NCBI GenBank assembly: GCA_028716665.1 | Contig: JAQUPP010000001.1 | Span: 349,046-413,045, forward strand | Reading direction: 5' to 3' | From: Patescibacteria group bacterium | GTDB taxonomy: Bacteria > Patescibacteriota > Patescibacteriia > UBA2591 > JAQUPP01 | DNA: 64,000 nucleotides | Shown: one piece after another, positions 57,335 to 64,000 of the stretch | Layout: each line of letters begins with the position of its first letter | How positions within the stretch are numbered: the first letter of the stretch is position 1 | The notes under the pieces: model-generated | What the model saw: the letters and a program-made list of their open reading frames with translations, nothing else | The model's database searches: none | Told to the model about the DNA's origin: nothing | Made by a program: the position numbers and the translations under genes

Positions 57335-60055
57335 ATGTCACTTTTTAAAAAAATTTTTGGCGACCCCAATAAAAAAGAAGTTCAAAAACTTCTGCCAATC
57401 GTGGAAAAAATAAATTCTTTGGAATCGGAATTCGAAAAATTAACAGACAATGGTTTGATTGAAAAAACAAATGAATTAAAAGATGAATTGAAAAATGGAA
57501 AATCAAAGGATCAAATTTTGCCAAGAGCTTTTGCTTTGACAAGAGAAGCGGCCAAGAGGACATTGAAACAAAGGCATTTTGATGTTCAATTAATGGCCGG
57601 TATTATTCTTCATAAAGGACAAATCGCTGAATTAAAAACCGGTGAAGGAAAAACTTTAGCCGCCACCTTAGCGGCTTATTTGAATGCTCTGGACGGGAAG
57701 GGGGTGCACATTATTACGGTTAATGATTATTTGGCTCGCCGAGACACCGTTTGGATGGGTCAAATTTATTATGCCTTGGGATTGAGTGTCAGCTGCATTG
57801 TTCACGATGCGGCTTTTATTTATGATCCGAATTATCAGCCGCCAGTTGAGGAAAATTCCGAGCCGAATAAAAATGAAGAAAATAAAGAAGTGGAAGCTTT
57901 TAAAATTATTAAAAGCTATTTGAGACCGGTCAAAAGAAAAGAAGCGTATCAGGCGGATATTACTTATGGCACGAATAATGAATTCGGTTTTGATTATTTG
58001 AGAGATAATTTGGTTTACAGTTTGGATGACATGGCTCAGCGAGAATTTAATTACGCCATTGTTGATGAAGTGGATAGTATTTTAATTGATGAGGCTAGAA
58101 CACCTTTGATTATTTCTTCGCCGGCTGAAGAATCGGCGGACTTGTATTTTAAATTGGCGCGCTTGGCTAAAAATTTTAAAAAAGAAGAAGATTATATTGT
58201 TGACGAAAAAATGCAAACTGTCATTTTAACCGAAGGCGGACAAAATAAATTAATAGCTTGGCTGGGCGAAGATCCGTGGGCGAACAGTAATTTCACTTTA
58301 GTTCATCACATTGAATCCGCATTAAAAGCTGAAAGTCTTTTTACTTTGGATCGCAATTATGTTGTTAAAGACGGAGAAATAGTAATTGTTGATGAATTTA
58401 CCGGAAGATTGATGTTCGGCCGCCGTTATTCCGAAGGATTGCATCAAGCCATTGAAGCCAAAGAAAATGTGGCGGTTCAACAGGAATCAAACACTTTGGC
58501 CACGGTCAGTTTTCAAAATTATTTTCGTCTTTATAAAAAATTAGCCGGTATGACCGGTACGGCCCTGAGCGAAGCGGAAGAATTTGATAAAATTTATCAT
58601 TTGGAAGTAGTGGCTATTCCCACCAACAAACCCGTGACCAGAGAAGATTTCTCGGATAAAATTTATCGCACTGAACAGGGAAAATATAATGCTTTGGCTG
58701 AAGAAATTAAAAAATGTTATGAAAAAGGCCAACCGGTTTTGGTCGGTACGATTTCAGTGGATAAAAATGAATTAGTTTCCCAATTATTGGAACGCAAGGG
58801 AATTCCTCACGAAGTTTTAAACGCCAAGAATCATGAGAGAGAAGGGCAAATTATCGCTCAAGCCGGCAGAATGAAAGCAATAACCGTAGCCACCAATATG
58901 GCCGGTCGGGGAGTAGATATTATTTTAGGCGGCAATCCGCCGAATCCAGAAGAACAAAAAAAAGTTATTGAAGCCGGAGGTTTGCGCGTGATCGGCACAG
59001 AACGGCACGAATCTCGCCGCATTGACAATCAGTTAAGAGGAAGAAGCGGACGTCAAGGCGATCCGGGTTCAACGGAATTTTTTATTTCCCTGGAAGATGA
59101 TTTAATGAGAATTTTTGGCGGTAATCGCATTTCAGGTTTAATGCAAACTTTAAAAATTCCGGAAGATTTTCCAATTGAAAACAGAATGGTTTCTCGAGCC
59201 ATTGAATCAGCGCAAAGAAAAGTTGAAGAATTTAATTTTGACATGAGAAAACATTTACTTGATTATGATGATGTTTTAAACAAGCATCGCGAAACGATTT
59301 ATGGCCGAAGAAAAAAGATTTTGGCCATGGACAAAGAAGGTTTAAAAGCGAAAATTTTAAATGTTATTGAAGAAGAAATTAAAAAAATAGTCGCTTTTCA
59401 TACGGCCGGCGACGCAGAAAATCAATGGGATGTTAAGGGTATTGCCAATTTAATTAAAAATATTTTTCCGGTTCAGGAAAATTTGGAAGAAGCTTTAAAT
59501 GATATTTATAATCAAGCCGGTGATCGTTCACAAGATATTTACACTCGCGACAGATTGATAAAATATTTGGAAGAATTAGCTCGTGAAGCTTATAATAAAT
59601 TGGAAGCGACAGTTGAAGCGTCGGGCAAATCATTATCAATTCCGGAACCGAATTTATTTGAAAAAATTGAAAAATCAATCTTACTTCAAAGTATTGATCG
59701 TTATTGGATTTATCATTTGGAAATTATCAATAATCTTAAAGACGGCATCGGATTAAGGGCTTATGGCCAGCACGATCCTTTAGTGGAATACAAAAAAGAA
59801 TCTTTCCAAAAATTTAATCAGCTTCTTGATGCGATTGACAAACAAGTGGTTTATTCCATTTATAAAGTCGGCTTGGTGGAAAGAGCGCCAATACAGCAAT
59901 CCAAACAGATGAAATTAAGCGGGGCGGAAAAATCAACAAATAATGCAGAGCCGATAGATAGTAAGCAAAAAGTCGGGCGCAATGATCCGTGTCCTTGTGG
60001 AGCAAAAAAACCAGATGGAACTCCGATAAAATATAAACATTGTCACGGGAAATAA
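57335..60055 (+). CDS. secA: Preprotein translocase ATPase SecA, including the C-terminal zinc-binding tail.
   Basis: LKTGEGKTL (Walker A), TGRLMFGRRYSEGLHQAIEAKE, and the C-terminal CPCGAKKPDGTPIKYKHCHG. Confidence 0.95.
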   Translation: MSLFKKIFGDPNKKEVQKLLPIVEKINSLESEFEKLTDNGLIEKTNELKDELKNGKSKDQILPRAFALTREAAKRTLKQRHFDVQLMAGIILHKGQIAELKTGEGKTLAATLAAYLNALDGKGVHIITVNDYLARRDTVWMGQIYYALGLSVSCIVHDAAFIYDPNYQPPVEENSEPNKNEENKEVEAFKIIKSYLRPVKRKEAYQADITYGTNNEFGFDYLRDNLVYSLDDMAQREFNYAIVDEVDSILIDEARTPLIISSPAEESADLYFKLARLAKNFKKEEDYIVDEKMQTVILTEGGQNKLIAWLGEDPWANSNFTLVHHIESALKAESLFTLDRNYVVKDGEIVIVDEFTGRLMFGRRYSEGLHQAIEAKENVAVQQESNTLATVSFQNYFRLYKKLAGMTGTALSEAEEFDKIYHLEVVAIPTNKPVTREDFSDKIYRTEQGKYNALAEEIKKCYEKGQPVLVGTISVDKNELVSQLLERKGIPHEVLNAKNHEREGQIIAQAGRMKAITVATNMAGRGVDIILGGNPPNPEEQKKVIEAGGLRVIGTERHESRRIDNQLRGRSGRQGDPGSTEFFISLEDDLMRIFGGNRISGLMQTLKIPEDFPIENRMVSRAIESAQRKVEEFNFDMRKHLLDYDDVLNKHRETIYGRRKKILAMDKEGLKAKILNVIEEEIKKIVAFHTAGDAENQWDVKGIANLIKNIFPVQENLEEALNDIYNQAGDRSQDIYTRDRLIKYLEELAREAYNKLEATVEASGKSLSIPEPNLFEKIEKSILLQSIDRYWIYHLEIINNLKDGIGLRAYGQHDPLVEYKKESFQKFNQLLDAIDKQVVYSIYKVGLVERAPIQQSKQMKLSGAEKSTNNAEPIDSKQKVGRNDPCPCGAKKPDGTPIKYKHCHGK

Positions 60056-60073
60056 AAAACAAGCAAAGCGCAG

Positions 60074-60107
60074 CCCCGTACTGAACCAGCAGGTTCAAGT
60101 ACCGGGG
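60074..60107 (+). terminator. GC-rich 14-bp hairpin with two single-nucleotide bulges immediately after secA. Probably a terminator or RNA-stability structure; there is no clear U-tract.
   Basis: CCCCGTACTGAACC (60074-60087), loop AGCA, GGTTCAAGTACCGGGG (60092-60107). It is conspicuously GC-rich for this window. Confidence 0.4.
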
Positions 60108-60133
60108 TATAAGAAATGTTGTGGGAAATAAAT

Positions 60134-60436
60134 ATGAAATATAATAAATTAGTCAGAGATAAAATTCCGGAATATATAAAAAGCAAAAACGGTGTGCCGA
60201 TTATCCATATTGCTGGCAATAAAGAGTATTGGCAAAAATTGAAAGAAAAATTACAGGAGGAGATAAAAGAATTTTCTGAGAGCGAAACCATTGAAGAAAT
60301 GGCGGATATTTTGGAGGTAATCAACGCGATTTGCGATTTTAAGAAATTTGACAAGAAAAAACTTGAAGCAGTGAGAAAGAAAAAAGTAAAAGAAAGAGGG
60401 GCGTTTAAAAAGAAAATTATTTTAGAAGAATCATAG
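60134..60436 (+). CDS. MazG-like / PRA-PH-like all-alpha nucleoside-triphosphate pyrophosphohydrolase family protein. The start is reassigned to [12 protein letters not shown].
   Basis: [11 protein letters not shown] at the N-terminus and an EE..ADILEV acidic metal-binding helix. These are typical of the roughly 100-aa MazG-like house-cleaning NTPases. Confidence 0.6.
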
Positions 60437-60454
60437 TATATAATAATAAAATTT

Positions 60455-60901
60455 ATGGAACAACAAGTTAAGAAAAAAGTGGGAGTGGGATTTGGAGTAA
60501 TGTTAATAAAAGAAGGAAAAATTCTTTTGGGAAAAAGACACGTTGATCCTGAAAAGGCTGACTCAGAATTACACGGAGAGGGAACATGGACAATGCCCGG
60601 AGGCAAACTTGAATATGGTGAATCATTTGAAGATGGAGCAAGACGTGAGGTTTTGGAAGAAACAGGAATTCAATTGAATGAAATGAAGGTTATCTGTATT
60701 AATAACGACAAAAATGAACATGCCCATTTTATTACTATTGGATTATTTTCTGATAATTTCAGCGGAGAACCGAAAGTTATGGAACCGGATGAAATTGTTG
60801 AATGGAAATGGTTTGATGTCAATAATCTGCCTGCGCCGATGTATTTTCCAAGTAAGAAAGTTTTAGAAAACTACAAGAAAAATTTATTCTATATCCCATA
60901 A
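60455..60901 (+). CDS. NUDIX hydrolase with a canonical Nudix box.
   Basis: GGKLEYGESFEDGARREVLEETGI matches GX5EX7REUXEEXGU exactly. Confidence 0.85.
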   Translation: MEQQVKKKVGVGFGVMLIKEGKILLGKRHVDPEKADSELHGEGTWTMPGGKLEYGESFEDGARREVLEETGIQLNEMKVICINNDKNEHAHFITIGLFSDNFSGEPKVMEPDEIVEWKWFDVNNLPAPMYFPSKKVLENYKKNLFYIP

Positions 60902-60926
60902 AATTTTTATTGATTTTAAAAATAAA

Positions 60927-61433
60927 ATGAAAAAAATTAATAAAGTTTTGGAAATAATTTCGGAAAAATTAAAAAGCGTTGATTACGCTTTTATTGGTTC
61001 GGTGAATTTATATATCCAAGGTTTGAAAATTAAACCAAGAGATATTGATATTTTAACCACCCCGGAAATAATAAAAGAAATAGATGAAATTTTAAAAGAA
61101 TATCTGACGAAAGAAATTTATTTTGATGAAAGCGAAGGGAGAAATTCGTTCAGAAGTTTCTATGAAATTGATGGCATGGAAATTGAGGTTTTGGGAAATG
61201 TAAATAATATTTCCAGAAAACCGGATAGTTTGAAAGATAAAATTTATATAGAGTTTGATAAAATTAAACTTCCCTGCATGCCCTTAAATAATGAATTGGA
61301 TATGTATGAAAAAATCGACCGCAAAGAAAAAGTTGAAATGATTAAAAAATTTTATGAAAAAGAAAAAGTCGCAGATCTATTGACTCATCAAAAGGATAAA
61401 GAATTTTTTTTACAAATTAAAAACAAAATATGA
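60927..61433 (+). CDS. Pol-beta-superfamily (minimal) nucleotidyltransferase-fold protein.
   Basis: GSVNLYIQGLKIKPRDIDIL fits the GS-X9-13-DxD nucleotidyltransferase motif, and a downstream acidic residue (EIEVLG) is present. The C-terminal 80 aa are unassigned and contain no HEPN R-X4-6-H motif. Confidence 0.5.
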   Translation: MKKINKVLEIISEKLKSVDYAFIGSVNLYIQGLKIKPRDIDILTTPEIIKEIDEILKEYLTKEIYFDESEGRNSFRSFYEIDGMEIEVLGNVNNISRKPDSLKDKIYIEFDKIKLPCMPLNNELDMYEKIDRKEKVEMIKKFYEKEKVADLLTHQKDKEFFLQIKNKI

Positions 61434-61651
61434 AAAATAATATGCTTAAATTAGGAAAATATAGACATTACAAAGAGAAAGAATATGAAGTAATTGGTAT
61501 CGCCAAACACAGTGAAACACTTGAAGAATTAGTGGTGTATAAAAAACTTTATGGAGACCATGATTTATGGGTGCGACCATTAAAAATGTTTATTGAAAAT
61601 GTTGAAGTTAATGGAAAGAAAATGCCGAGGTTTAAATATATTGGAAAATGA
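61430..61651 (+). CDS. DUF1653-like small protein.
   Basis: GKYRHYKEKEYEVIGIAKHSETLEELVVYKKLY...WVRP resembles the DUF1653 consensus as I recall it. It overlaps the upstream gene's stop by 4 nt. Confidence 0.45.
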   Translation: MKNNMLKLGKYRHYKEKEYEVIGIAKHSETLEELVVYKKLYGDHDLWVRPLKMFIENVEVNGKKMPRFKYIGK

Positions 61652-61654
61652 GTT

Positions 61655-62128
61655 ATGAAATATAAAATAATAGAATTTAAACCAAAACCGGGCCAGATTG
61701 ACTATACAAAAGCGCGTTGGGCACCGGTGATTAATTGCGTGATTAAATATAAAGATAAGTTTCTCTTGGTTCAGCGAAGCGAGAAATTGAATTTTTATCC
61801 CGGATATTGGAATGGAATTTCCGGATTTCTGGATGACCACAAAACCTTGGCGGAAAAAGTAGAAGAAGAATTAAGGGAAGAATTAGGCATTAACAAAAAA
61901 GATATTTTACAAATTCGGCTCGGAGAAATTTTTGATCAAGACGAATTAAAATATAAAAAAACTTGGATTGTTCATCCGGTATTGGTAAAAGTTAAAACAA
62001 ATAAAATAAAACTTGATTGGGAGGCGAGAAATTATAGATGGGTTGACTTACAAGAAGCGAATAAGTTAAAATTATTGCCGGGTTTTGGCAAAGTTTTGGA
62101 AAAGCTGTTATCCTGGTTAGAAAAATAA
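61655..62128 (+). CDS. NUDIX-fold protein with a degenerate Nudix box.
   Basis: SGFLDDHKTLAEKVEEELREELGI. The EE..GI end of the box is present, but the REUXEE arginine is displaced and the first Glu is replaced by Lys. Confidence 0.55.
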   Translation: MKYKIIEFKPKPGQIDYTKARWAPVINCVIKYKDKFLLVQRSEKLNFYPGYWNGISGFLDDHKTLAEKVEEELREELGINKKDILQIRLGEIFDQDELKYKKTWIVHPVLVKVKTNKIKLDWEARNYRWVDLQEANKLKLLPGFGKVLEKLLSWLEK

Positions 62129-62151
62129 AAGTATTTTAACTGCGAATAATA

Positions 62152-62179
62152 AAATCAGCCCTTTTCAAGGGCTGATTTA
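62152..62179. terminator. Bidirectional rho-independent terminator between the convergent Nudix gene and the small Cys-rich ORF. Perfect 12-bp stem AAATCAGCCCTT/AAGGGCTGATTT, loop TTCA.
   Basis: Perfect inverted repeat 62152-62163 / 62168-62179, with T-runs on the minus strand (reverse complement of AATAATAAAA). Confidence 0.7.
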
Positions 62180-62200
62180 AGAAAAAACTTTTAGGACGAT

Positions 62201-62419
62201 TTATCCTTCAAAATGAGGGCAACGAGTTATGATTAGGGCAACATTTTCTTTTTTACAAATTTCATAAAGCATTTGTGCAATAGGGCAATTATTTTTTTCT
62301 CCTGGGTTAGATTTACAGCAATTGAAACAAAGACATTCTTTATTCCGCAAAGATTCGGTTGTCGGGTTAACCCAAACTTCTGTGTTATAGTGAACTTCTT
62401 TTTTGGGTTGTTCTTTCAT
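62201..62419 (-). CDS. Small Cys-rich protein (72 aa, 8 Cys) of unknown function.
   Basis: Strong Shine-Dalgarno AAGGAGGTGAAA 5 nt upstream of the ATG (reverse complement of 62420-62436). The cysteine pattern is CLCFNCC...C...C...C...RCPHFEG. It is followed by the bidirectional terminator. Confidence 0.55.
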   Translation of the reverse strand: MKEQPKKEVHYNTEVWVNPTTESLRNKECLCFNCCKSNPGEKNNCPIAQMLYEICKKENVALIITRCPHFEG

Positions 62420-62613: not shown

Positions 62614-64000
62614 ATGACTCGTAATAAACTTTGGACAATTTTTTTAAGCATCGTTGTTTTAACCGTTTTGTCTCTTTTAGTTGATATTCCGCGTCTTCCA
62701 TCTTGGGTTCCGGGACATCAATGGTTCACCAAGCAAAAAGTTCACTTGGGACTTGATTTGCAAGGCGGCACGCAATTAATTTATCAAGCCAATACTTCGC
62801 AAATTCCCGATGATCAAAAAGTTTCAGCGGTTGAAGGAGCGCGCGACGTAATTGAGCGACGGGTAAATGTTTTTGGCGTTGCCGAACCTTTAATCCAAAC
62901 TGCTAAAGTGGGAGAAGATTGGCGCGTGATCGTAGAATTGCCGGGTATTAAAAATGTCAGTGATGCCATTAAAATGATTGGCGAAACGCCGACCTTGGAA
63001 TTTAAAGAACAAGCTCCGCAAACAGGTGCAAGTGATCCGGCGGCAATTGCGCAATATAATCAAATGGCCAAACAAAAAGCGGAATCAATTTTACAGCAAG
63101 CGCTTCAGCCTAATGCTGATTTTAGTAAATTAGCCAAACAATATTCTGAAGATCCGGGTTCAAAAGATAAAGGCGGAGATTTAGGTTGGTTTGCCAAGGG
63201 GATGATGGTTCCTGAATTTGAAACAGCGGTTTTTGATCAATTGAAAAAAGGAGAAACGACAAAAACATTGGTCCAGACATCTTTTGGTTATCATATTATT
63301 AAAAAAGTTGATGAACGAACAAATGATAAGGGCGAAATGGAAGTAACAGCCAGCCATATTTTAATTTTAACTCAAGCTCAGACGGCTCCGCAAAATACTG
63401 ATTGGCAATATACCGGTTTAACCGGCAAACAATTGAAAAGTGCAACAATGACTTTTGATCCCAATTCCAATGAACCGGAAGTTTCTTTGGAATTTAATGA
63501 AGAAGGAACAAAACTTTTCGGAGAAATTACCACCAGAAATGTTTCCAAACCTGTGGCGATATTTTTAGATGGCGTTCCTTTAAGTATCCCGACAGTTAAC
63601 GAACCGATTACCAGTGGCAAGGCTGTGATTACCGGAAAATTTGATATGAAAGAGGCCAAAGAGTTGGCGACAAGACTTTCTGCCGGTGCTTTACCAGTAC
63701 CAATAACATTAATCAGTCAGCAAAATATTGGACCGAGTTTAGGTAAACTTTCAGTGCAAAACAGTTTACTTGCCGGATTATTGGGTCTTTTGATGGTTAT
63801 GTTATTTATGACTATTTTTTATCGCGGACGGGGATTATTAGCTAGTATTATTTTAATTATTTACGCTTTAATCAACTTGGCTTTATTCAAATTAATCCCG
63901 GTTACTTTAACCTTAGCCGGTGTAGCTGGTTTTATTTTATCTATTGGCATGGCGGTTGACGCTCAAGTTTTAATTTTTGAACGCATTAAGGACGAGGAAA
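62614..64000 (+). CDS. secD: Protein translocase subunit SecD (3'-truncated by the window end) carrying an inserted parvulin (PpiC-type) peptidyl-prolyl isomerase domain in the first periplasmic domain.
   Basis: My own translation from the ATG at 62614 (frame 1) is open to nt 64000. It gives [20 protein letters not shown]...[15 protein letters not shown]...[29 protein letters not shown] (SecD), then [47 protein letters not shown]...FGYHIIKK (parvulin), then the SecD P1 region and a TM helix ([38 protein letters not shown]). This ORF is not in the supplied ORF track because it has no stop inside the window. Confidence 0.85.

Follow-up and report, generated by a model that had tools for sequence, protein, structure and literature searches.

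Identification of a parvulin insert in SecD

The stretch analysed here (hereafter the window) comprises 64,000 nucleotides of contig JAQUPP010000001.1 (positions 349,046 to 413,045, forward strand) from the metagenome-assembled genome (MAG) of a Patescibacteria group bacterium (GCA_028716665.1), and at its right end lies a secD gene whose product carries a parvulin-type domain between the base and the head of its large periplasmic domain P1 (Table 1). The gene begins with an ATG at 62614 on the plus strand and runs in an uninterrupted frame of 462 codons to the window end at 64000, which covers residues 1-462 of a 536-aa protein whose C-terminal remainder lies beyond the window. The translated product is 100% identical to the public protein P0001 (536 aa), named 'MAG: protein translocase subunit SecD [Patescibacteria group bacterium]'; it exceeds the cutoff of the NCBIfam equivalog TIGR01129 secD despite the truncated query (282.8 against 244.4 bits), and all four of its Pfam SecD domains surpass their gathering thresholds. 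The AlphaFold2 model of the full-length protein, built on a 77-sequence alignment (mean predicted local distance difference test score, pLDDT, 85.6; predicted template modelling score, pTM, 0.55), displays a SecD-like overall fold with the first transmembrane helix (TM1), a large P1 composed of base and head, and a five-helix bundle. The SecDF structures 5YHF, 5XAN and 3AQP were the top Foldseek matches of this model (E ~1e-22), and phmmer against solved SecDF gave E = 6.5e-80. Since SecDF and RND transporters alone fill the best 50 Foldseek matches listed, parvulin matches are masked in this search. The window gene encodes a bona fide SecD, a subunit of the motor SecDF, which uses protons to drive translocation.

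In the HMMER alignment with SecDF of Thermus thermophilus (3AQP), the window protein falls into two aligned blocks, one extending to LEFR116 and the other resuming from LTG160, and the base-to-head connector between them measures 137 aa in the window protein versus ~43 aa with one short helix in Thermus. Two Pfam parvulin profiles match within this connector, namely Rotamase_3 (aa 149-233, E = 4.4e-27, 95.4 bits against a cutoff of 22.5, profile positions 33-114 of 116) and Rotamase (aa 145-231, E = 1.8e-22, 80.5 bits against a cutoff of 21.7, profile positions 11-95 of 97), and the best sequence match of the insert in the PDB is SurA P2 (E = 6.6e-20); matches of this strength lie well outside what chance would give. 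As judged from these alignments, the insert occupies the connector joining P1-base to P1-head. The original prediction, made from the letters of the window, had described a parvulin-type insert of about 120 aa between TLEFKEQ and P1-head; the domain and all the strings quoted for it were found, whereas the size had to be revised to a net gain of ~95 aa, because Thermus SecDF already holds ~43 aa between LEFR and LTG, with a confidently folded unit spanning aa 140-256. The solved SecDF structures agree with the remark that SecD does not carry such a domain as standard, but the insert occurs in every listed relative of the clade. HMMER also aligned AAIAQYNQ of the window protein to the Thermus connector helix TTVAQINQ, with N149 invariant in the family, and at aa 142-150 (nt 63037-63063) the insertion may have joined parvulin α1 to a pre-existing SecD helix.

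Table 1. Features of the secD gene and of the genes between secA and secD, in window coordinates
Feature	Position (nt)	Strand	Residues (aa)	Basis or remark
secD	62614-64000	+		Translation; TIGR01129; 100% identity to P0001; secF downstream on public contigs
TM1 helix	62617-62685	+	2-24	AlphaFold2 helix
P1-base N-terminal part, SecD_1st, last strand TLEFKEQ	62833-63012	+	74-133	Pfam E = 3.3e-17; Thermus SecDF alignment to LEFR116
TLEFKEQ	62992-63012	+	127-133	Translation
Entry linker APQTGASD	63013-63036	+	134-141	pLDDT <50 at 137-139
Parvulin core without β1: long α1, α2, α3, β2 (DLGWFA), α4, β3, β4	63037-63321	+	142-236	Pfam Rotamase, Rotamase_3; DSSP
43-residue parvulin string quoted in the original prediction		+	168-210	Translation
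D180 codon	63151-63153	+	180	D in 76/77 homologues
T222 codon	63277-63279	+	222	T or S in 77/77
FGYHIIKK		+	224-231	Translation
H227 codon, β4 His	63292-63294	+	227	H in 77/77
β4-to-β1' hairpin turn NDKGE, junction of the former C- and N-termini	63322-63336	+	237-241	DSSP strand break
Permuted strand β1', carrying H248	63337-63369	+	242-252	Profile extension; conservation; DSSP; pLDDT
VTASHILIL	63343-63369	+	244-252	Translation
H248 codon, β1' His	63355-63357	+	248	H in 77/77
Exit linker	63370-63402	+	253-263	pLDDT <50 at 257-260
SecD P1-head	63403-63699	+	264-362	Pfam SecDF_P1_head aa 268-362, E = 5e-30; aligns with Thermus SecDF residue 160 onward
LTGKQL		+	269-274	Translation
Start of SecD transmembrane bundle, cut by window end	63745-64000	+	from 378	Pfam SecD_SecF_C from aa 365; AlphaFold2 helices from 378
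Open reading frame (ORF), no significant Pfam match	60116-60436			Between secA and secD
NUDIX hydrolase	60455-60901			Between secA and secD
Nucleotidyltransferase-like ORF (weak)	60927-61433			Between secA and secD
DUF1653	61430-61651			Between secA and secD
NUDIX hydrolase	61655-62128			Between secA and secD
72-aa Cys-rich ORF, no Pfam match	62201-62419	-		Between secA and secD

Circular permutation of the parvulin domain

The canonical parvulin order is β1-α1-3-β2-α4-β3-β4, and in the insert β1 comes after β4. Upstream, the ten Rotamase profile positions that describe β1 and its catalytic His are unmatched, and since the match starts only at profile position 11, the N-terminal β1 is truly absent, as had been predicted. 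When the 17 residues containing the VTASHILIL strand were moved ahead of the insert and the construct was rescored with Pfam, the Rotamase match covered positions 1-95 of 97 and rose from 83.9 to 88.9 bits, while Rotamase_3 rose from 100.0 to 104.5 bits with its first matched position shifting from 33 to 15; a 13-residue segment moved in the same way likewise brought the Rotamase match from 11-95 to 1-95, for a gain of 5-6 bits. Controls with the strand reversed or shuffled started at position 10 or 30 and scored 83.9-84.2 and 98.3-98.6 bits; as they gave neither extension nor gain, the improvement is specific to the native strand. Against the PDB, the rearranged construct aligned with Pin1 and with Staphylococcus aureus PrsA (2JZV) from TASHILI through β4.

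The AlphaFold2 model is in agreement with this order. DSSP assigned helices at 142-163, 170-177, 181-184 and 200-209 and strands at 189-194 and 225-236, the latter followed by a turn and the strand 242-252, and the block-mean pLDDT was 90-96 over residues 151-250, 94-96 over 221-250 and 96 for 241-250. Values below 50 were observed only at residues 137-139 and 257-260, and because these low-confidence linkers flank rather than split the unit 140-256, the confidently folded unit includes the ASHILIL strand. The strand is also highly conserved among the 77 homologues, with H248 in all of them, A246 and L250 in 76, I249 in 75 and S247 in 71. Between the two His lie 15-45 residues across these homologues, the minimum of 15 equalling the sum of the 8 + 7 residues found beside the two His of Escherichia coli Par10, as would result if the old C- and N-termini were directly joined, with the longer loops representing acidic insertions at this join. 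This β4-β1' loop (window aa 237-241) was observed as an insertion hot spot, as in P0012, P0014, P0068 and P0086; in P0362 and P0372, which lie outside the 77-sequence alignment, the two His are ~65 residues apart, and the extra residues are often strongly acidic, with Glu/Val/Ile-rich repeats.

A strand motif of this kind is ambiguous by itself, because in tandem parvulins, such as those encoded by the SurA-like loci L017, L032 and L064, β1 of the next domain likewise follows β4 after a short linker. VTASHILIL could then be a connector strand of P1-head, or the relic β1 of a lost second parvulin, with no permutation and a parvulin reduced to a three-stranded remnant, and the SecDF_P1_head match, which opens only at profile position 20, also speaks for it. 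We nevertheless regard this explanation as very improbable, as β1 is absent upstream and a second domain is absent downstream, the SecD head beginning ~11 residues past the strand; the linker with pLDDT <50 is placed after VTASHILIL and not before it; ASHIL is invariant or nearly so and the family has no alternative β1 candidate; and Thermus SecDF has no similar segment at this site. To our knowledge, a parvulin sheet missing its central His-bearing strand is not known as a stable fold. An assignment of ASHILIL as a SecD-native strand was rejected in the same way, Thermus having nothing similar there and the low-confidence linker coming after the strand.

The insert is thus best described, from sequence and model together, as a homologue of the parvulin family that is yet a circular permutant, and since its order is α1 through β4, hairpin and β1, both of its chain ends lie at the old β1/α1 junction. 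That a permuted parvulin sits inside SecD, as a structural statement, is held with high confidence. The suspected permutation of the original prediction is in this way supported by the profile completion, the invariant His248 and the predicted hairpin.

Catalytic and pocket residues

The residues D180, H248, H227, T222, L190, M198 and F202 are all present in the window protein and are 91-100% conserved among the 77 homologues, which share 58-72% identity; the counts for the tetrad are given in Table 1. Among the proline-pocket positions, L190 is found in 70 of the 77 sequences (Val or Ile in the other seven), M198 in 76 and F202 in all 77. From motif alignment with Par14 (YSED...GGDLGW and KTKFGYHII) and with Pin1, we take D180 to correspond to Par14 D74 and Pin1 C113, T222 to Par14 T118 and Pin1 T152, H227 to Par14 H123 and Pin1 H157, and H248 to Par14 H42 and Pin1 H59. 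On these alignments, the parvulin tetrad D180-H248-H227-T222 and the Leu/Met/Phe pocket are conserved, and it is judged fairly probable that the insert is catalytically active as a prolyl isomerase.

Distribution of the insert and authenticity of the gene

All 120 listed single-domain relatives (cluster representatives with 58-72% identity) carry the Rotamase and SecD domains, to which at least 120 two-domain representatives are added, and in the survey of SecD homologues suggested earlier the insert was thus present in every relative listed. Wherever source names were given they indicate Patescibacteria, including Parcubacteria, Veblenbacteria, Kerfeldbacteria, Buchananbacteria, Komeilibacteria, Uhrbacteria, Magasanikbacteria and Falkowbacteria. 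In GTDB species genomes, full-length SecD with the insert was encoded at the loci L001-L016, L023, L042 and L079, and at L045 the SecD gene is interrupted by masked sequence. Several of these records (L002, L008, L013, L015, L016, L023, L045 and L079; locus guanine-cytosine (GC) content 0.30-0.64) are titled Lysobacteraceae, 'uncultured Gammaproteobacteria' or Candidatus Binatia. The SecDs of the records so labelled are of the Patescibacteria type; the labels probably represent mislabelling or mis-binning, and the insert may also truly occur outside Patescibacteria. The insert is missing from the solved SecDFs of Thermus, Deinococcus and E. coli. A profile search with the insert and its flanks against 1.84 billion cluster representatives returned 948 matches at E <= 1e-30, a number that is not a family size, because multi-parvulin SurA/PpiD-like proteins dominate the top of the list; after clustering at 50%, ~25 of the best 150 representatives were of the SecD type by motif, including a 905-aa SecDF fusion (P0372).

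Some relatives show further variation. P0362, P0372 and P0123 have an extra 'SPIDTDGDGVVTERD / DENDDGVIDAQD / DTNGNGEIDQFD' insertion in P1-head after FLDG, which resembles a DxDxDG calcium-binding loop. P0208, a 427-aa SecD fragment, has a longer and different region past LEFKEE, followed by a canonical-order parvulin (Rotamase 1-96) and then, between parvulin and P1-head, the terminal strand 'KVSFALLTF'; its outer permuted domain seems either to have given way to other sequence or to be beyond recognition. Parvulins without an upstream β1 were also observed outside SecD, such as L034:3001-3282 in a Saccharimonadales MAG, and L075:3001-3291, L019:3001-3372 and L036:3001-3303 in Pyrinomonadaceae MAGs. 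In these four, β4 is followed by 'QVQASHILI' or 'VHARHILL' with no second domain after it, the Pfam parvulin match of L034 and L019 starts at profile position 11-12, and L034 also has a SurA_N-like domain. The four cases were inspected by eye, as classification by regular expression also admits fragments of SecD and degenerate tandem domains and is unreliable for non-SecD proteins; the four suggest that circularly permuted parvulins may not be confined to SecD.

The possibility that the secD junctions represent an assembly or binning chimera with a prsA/surA-like gene, which the original prediction had named as a refutation, has nothing in its favour apart from the metagenomic origin of the window. 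The identical 536-aa protein is encoded on three separately assembled contigs of 640 kb, 68 kb (GCA_028713475.1) and 4.8 kb (GCA_028690995.1), the frame is continuous, the GC content is even over three segments across the insert (0.42, 0.39 and 0.37), and the insert recurs in the 120 single-domain and at least 120 two-domain representatives from many samples as well as in the GTDB species genomes. Because the architecture recurs independently, the chimera is refuted, and its probability is practically negligible.

On two of these contigs with the identical gene the neighbours match those of the window, and on the longer of the two the order is secA, a 100-aa gene, NUDIX, a 168-aa gene, DUF1653, NUDIX, a small minus-strand ORF, secD, secF, glycosyltransferase, murJ and lepA. 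SecF (295 aa) begins 8 nt past secD on the public contigs, beyond the window, so that the secD-secF operon is intact, and the short contig ends within secF; secF adjoins secD in L001 too, where secA, secD and secF are directly adjacent. In the window, the product of secA is 906 aa long and ends in a Cys/His zinc motif at its C-terminus, and six small genes lie between secA and secD (Table 1), the segment from secA through the last of them spanning 57335-62419. A tblastn scan of the 64-kb window found no second parvulin gene.

Two-parvulin sister form

Sister SecDs of 650-714 aa, with at least 120 cluster representatives, are laid out as a first parvulin core (A1), an ASHILIC strand, a second core (A2) and a VSRILIK strand, such as P0112, P0119 and P0241-P0358, and the loci L007-L016, L023, L042 and L079 (e.g. 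L016:2134-4200). They were collected with full-length P0112 as the query, since a 279-aa insert query gave only proteins of <=489 aa, mostly fragments. Over 117 aligned sequences, His is found in 2 at β4 of the first domain (mostly Asn), in 116 on the middle strand, in all 117 at β4 of the second domain and in 1 on the terminal strand (mostly Arg). The AlphaFold2 model of the P0112 insert (pLDDT 96.1, pTM 0.81) shows unbroken strands of 23-24 residues at 94-116 and 202-225, and in Foldseek complete canonical parvulins superpose on it, including 4G2P (108 aa over 116 columns, TMt 0.84, root-mean-square deviation 2.0), 2JZV (TMt 0.81) and 6XD8 (TMt 0.83). These patterns indicate that the middle strand and A2 form a canonical, catalytically intact domain nested in the β4-β1' hairpin of a degenerate permuted domain, which would consist of A1 and the terminal strand. 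Such a nested arrangement provides independent support that, in this SecD family, the strand after β4 completes a parvulin lacking β1. The single and double forms can be interconverted through tandem duplication of the permuted unit or through trimming of a tandem, in either direction. In 32 aligned two-parvulin sequences, a pair of Cys that comes right behind the middle strand (ILICYKGAxRCE) does not vary, which suggests that the two form a disulfide.

Proposed function at the translocon

PrsA acts as a foldase for exported proteins in Bacillota. The P1-head of SecDF has an amphiphilic cavity in which it captures precursors, and it swings among the forms Super-F, F and I (PMC5974789), PpiD touches SecD's periplasmic domain and works with SecDF (PMC9643414), and Mpn444, an active parvulin lipoprotein of Mycoplasma, cross-links to SecD (bioRxiv 10.1101/2024.09.05.611430). 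By analogy with these systems, it is considered with good confidence that the insert takes part in the handling of translocating substrates, and the permuted parvulin in the SecD connector likely serves the exit of the translocon in cis, as a foldase or holdase. The parvulin would lie outside the cytoplasm, on the swinging P1-head or beside it, where it would meet unfolded chains that leave SecYEG and are caught by P1-head, and it would catalyse prolyl isomerisation or at least hold the chains, aiding their release and folding. The fusion would thereby perform in cis the job that PpiD and PrsA-type foldases do in trans. Of the foldase built into the SecDF motor that had been originally proposed, the parvulin domain in SecD is established, and the foldase function is the part that stays at this level of likelihood.

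Several points weigh against this reading. The helix 142-163 may, over its first ~10 residues, derive from SecD itself, with parvulin α1 fused on; the evidence for the pairing of β1' and for the adjacency of H227 and H248 comes from DSSP, pLDDT, profile and conservation rather than from measured contacts; and with a pTM of 0.55 the full-length model does not fix where the parvulin lies with respect to the P1-head cavity or SecYEG. Some parvulin domains associated with the translocon or with outer membrane proteins are inactive, including those of PpiD and SurA P1. The insert could likewise be a permuted, non-catalytic parvulin fold that only binds or holds substrates, or that keeps parts of the structure apart as a spacer on P1-head, similar to these inactive domains. 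Doubt has indeed been cast on how much the parvulin domain of PpiD matters (PMC9643414), and in the two-parvulin SecDs one domain without the histidines and the MVPEFE pocket motif is yet retained; in the single-domain family, to which the window protein belongs, however, the tetrad and pocket positions vary little or not at all across the 58-72%-identical homologues, as seen in active parvulins (e.g. Par14 and PrsA) and not in degenerate ones. A non-catalytic insert is accordingly rated as unlikely, and the cis-acting foldase or holdase remains the preferred interpretation.

A more far-reaching version is speculative, and we regard it as rather improbable. In it, the parvulin on the connector of the swinging P1-head would couple the proton-driven F-to-I movement to chain capture, isomerisation and release, representing an energy-coupled foldase in a compartment that lacks ATP, outside the cytoplasm, which may replace PpiD/PrsA-type factors in these reduced genomes; parvulins of permuted order would then be a structural class so far unrecognised, with members also among PrsA-like proteins of Saccharimonadales and Acidobacteriota.

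Comparison with known systems

The SecDFs of Thermus thermophilus and Deinococcus radiodurans (3AQP, 5YHF, 5XAN/5XAP) belong to the same family and fold and share P1-base, P1-head and the transmembrane bundle, but they have a ~43-residue connector where the window protein has a ~117-residue parvulin unit, and SecD and SecF are separate genes here. SurA P2 (1M5Y, 4G2P) is the closest solved-structure sequence match of the insert, and the tandem parvulins of SurA are a natural source of segments running β4, short linker, β1; unlike the window insert, SurA is a soluble periplasmic chaperone with domains in canonical order. The PrsA lipoproteins of Bacillota (4WO7, 2JZV, 6VJ6) resemble the window protein in being extracytoplasmic, membrane-tethered parvulin proteins, and they act as prolyl isomerases on chains emerging from the Sec channel of cells without an outer membrane; their parvulin sequences are closely similar (NCBIfam PrsA models match the insert with E = 1.6e-20), and they differ from it in that their parvulin is canonical in order, lies within an N/C chaperone domain and is lipid-anchored. 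The NCBIfam PrsA and SurA matches span the parvulin segment only and fall far under their cutoffs (e.g. 73.7 against 361 bits), and no SurA_N/PrsA chaperone domain was detected in the window protein with Pfam and NCBIfam. Because this chaperone domain is absent and the parvulin module alone is shared, the window SecD is not a member of the PrsA, SurA or PpiD families.

PpiD (with YfgM) of E. coli and Vibrio is a membrane-anchored parvulin protein at the periplasmic face of SecYEG that acts late in translocation (PMC9643414), and it would do the same proposed job in trans. Here, in contrast, there is a parvulin only, covalently within SecD, permuted and with its catalytic residues intact. PpiD is a protein in its own right, in which SurA-like chaperone domains accompany a parvulin of canonical order that has been reported as inactive. 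The surface parvulin prolyl isomerases Mpn444 and Mpn436 of Mycoplasma pneumoniae, of which Mpn444 has been modelled above the translocon (bioRxiv 10.1101/2024.09.05.611430), are large separate lipoproteins whose association with SecD is non-covalent, as opposed to the covalent link observed here. A conceptual analogue with an FKBP fold is trigger factor, a cytosolic and separate protein that acts as prolyl isomerase and chaperone at the ribosome exit.

Significance

Databases annotate both the SecD and the parvulin domains on these proteins, and neither a SecD-parvulin fusion nor a circularly permuted parvulin was found described in the searchable literature, subscription-only papers lying outside its scope; the architecture is apparently visible in databases yet undiscussed, and this may be the first reported circularly permuted parvulin. 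SecDF and parvulin foldases are each well studied, and links between PpiD and SecD and between Mpn444 and SecD were proposed only recently. A natural covalent fusion that is widely conserved represents 'Rosetta-stone' evidence that places prolyl isomerisation or chaperoning at SecD's periplasmic domain, and it offers a compact single-polypeptide system for studies of the translocon-to-foldase hand-over. The relatives appear to capture several states, such as the single permuted domain, the canonical domain nested in a permuted one, and hairpin loops of varied length, and provide a useful case for how permutations arise and are tolerated. The finding also adds to the picture of small-genome Patescibacteria consolidating the functions of envelope biogenesis.

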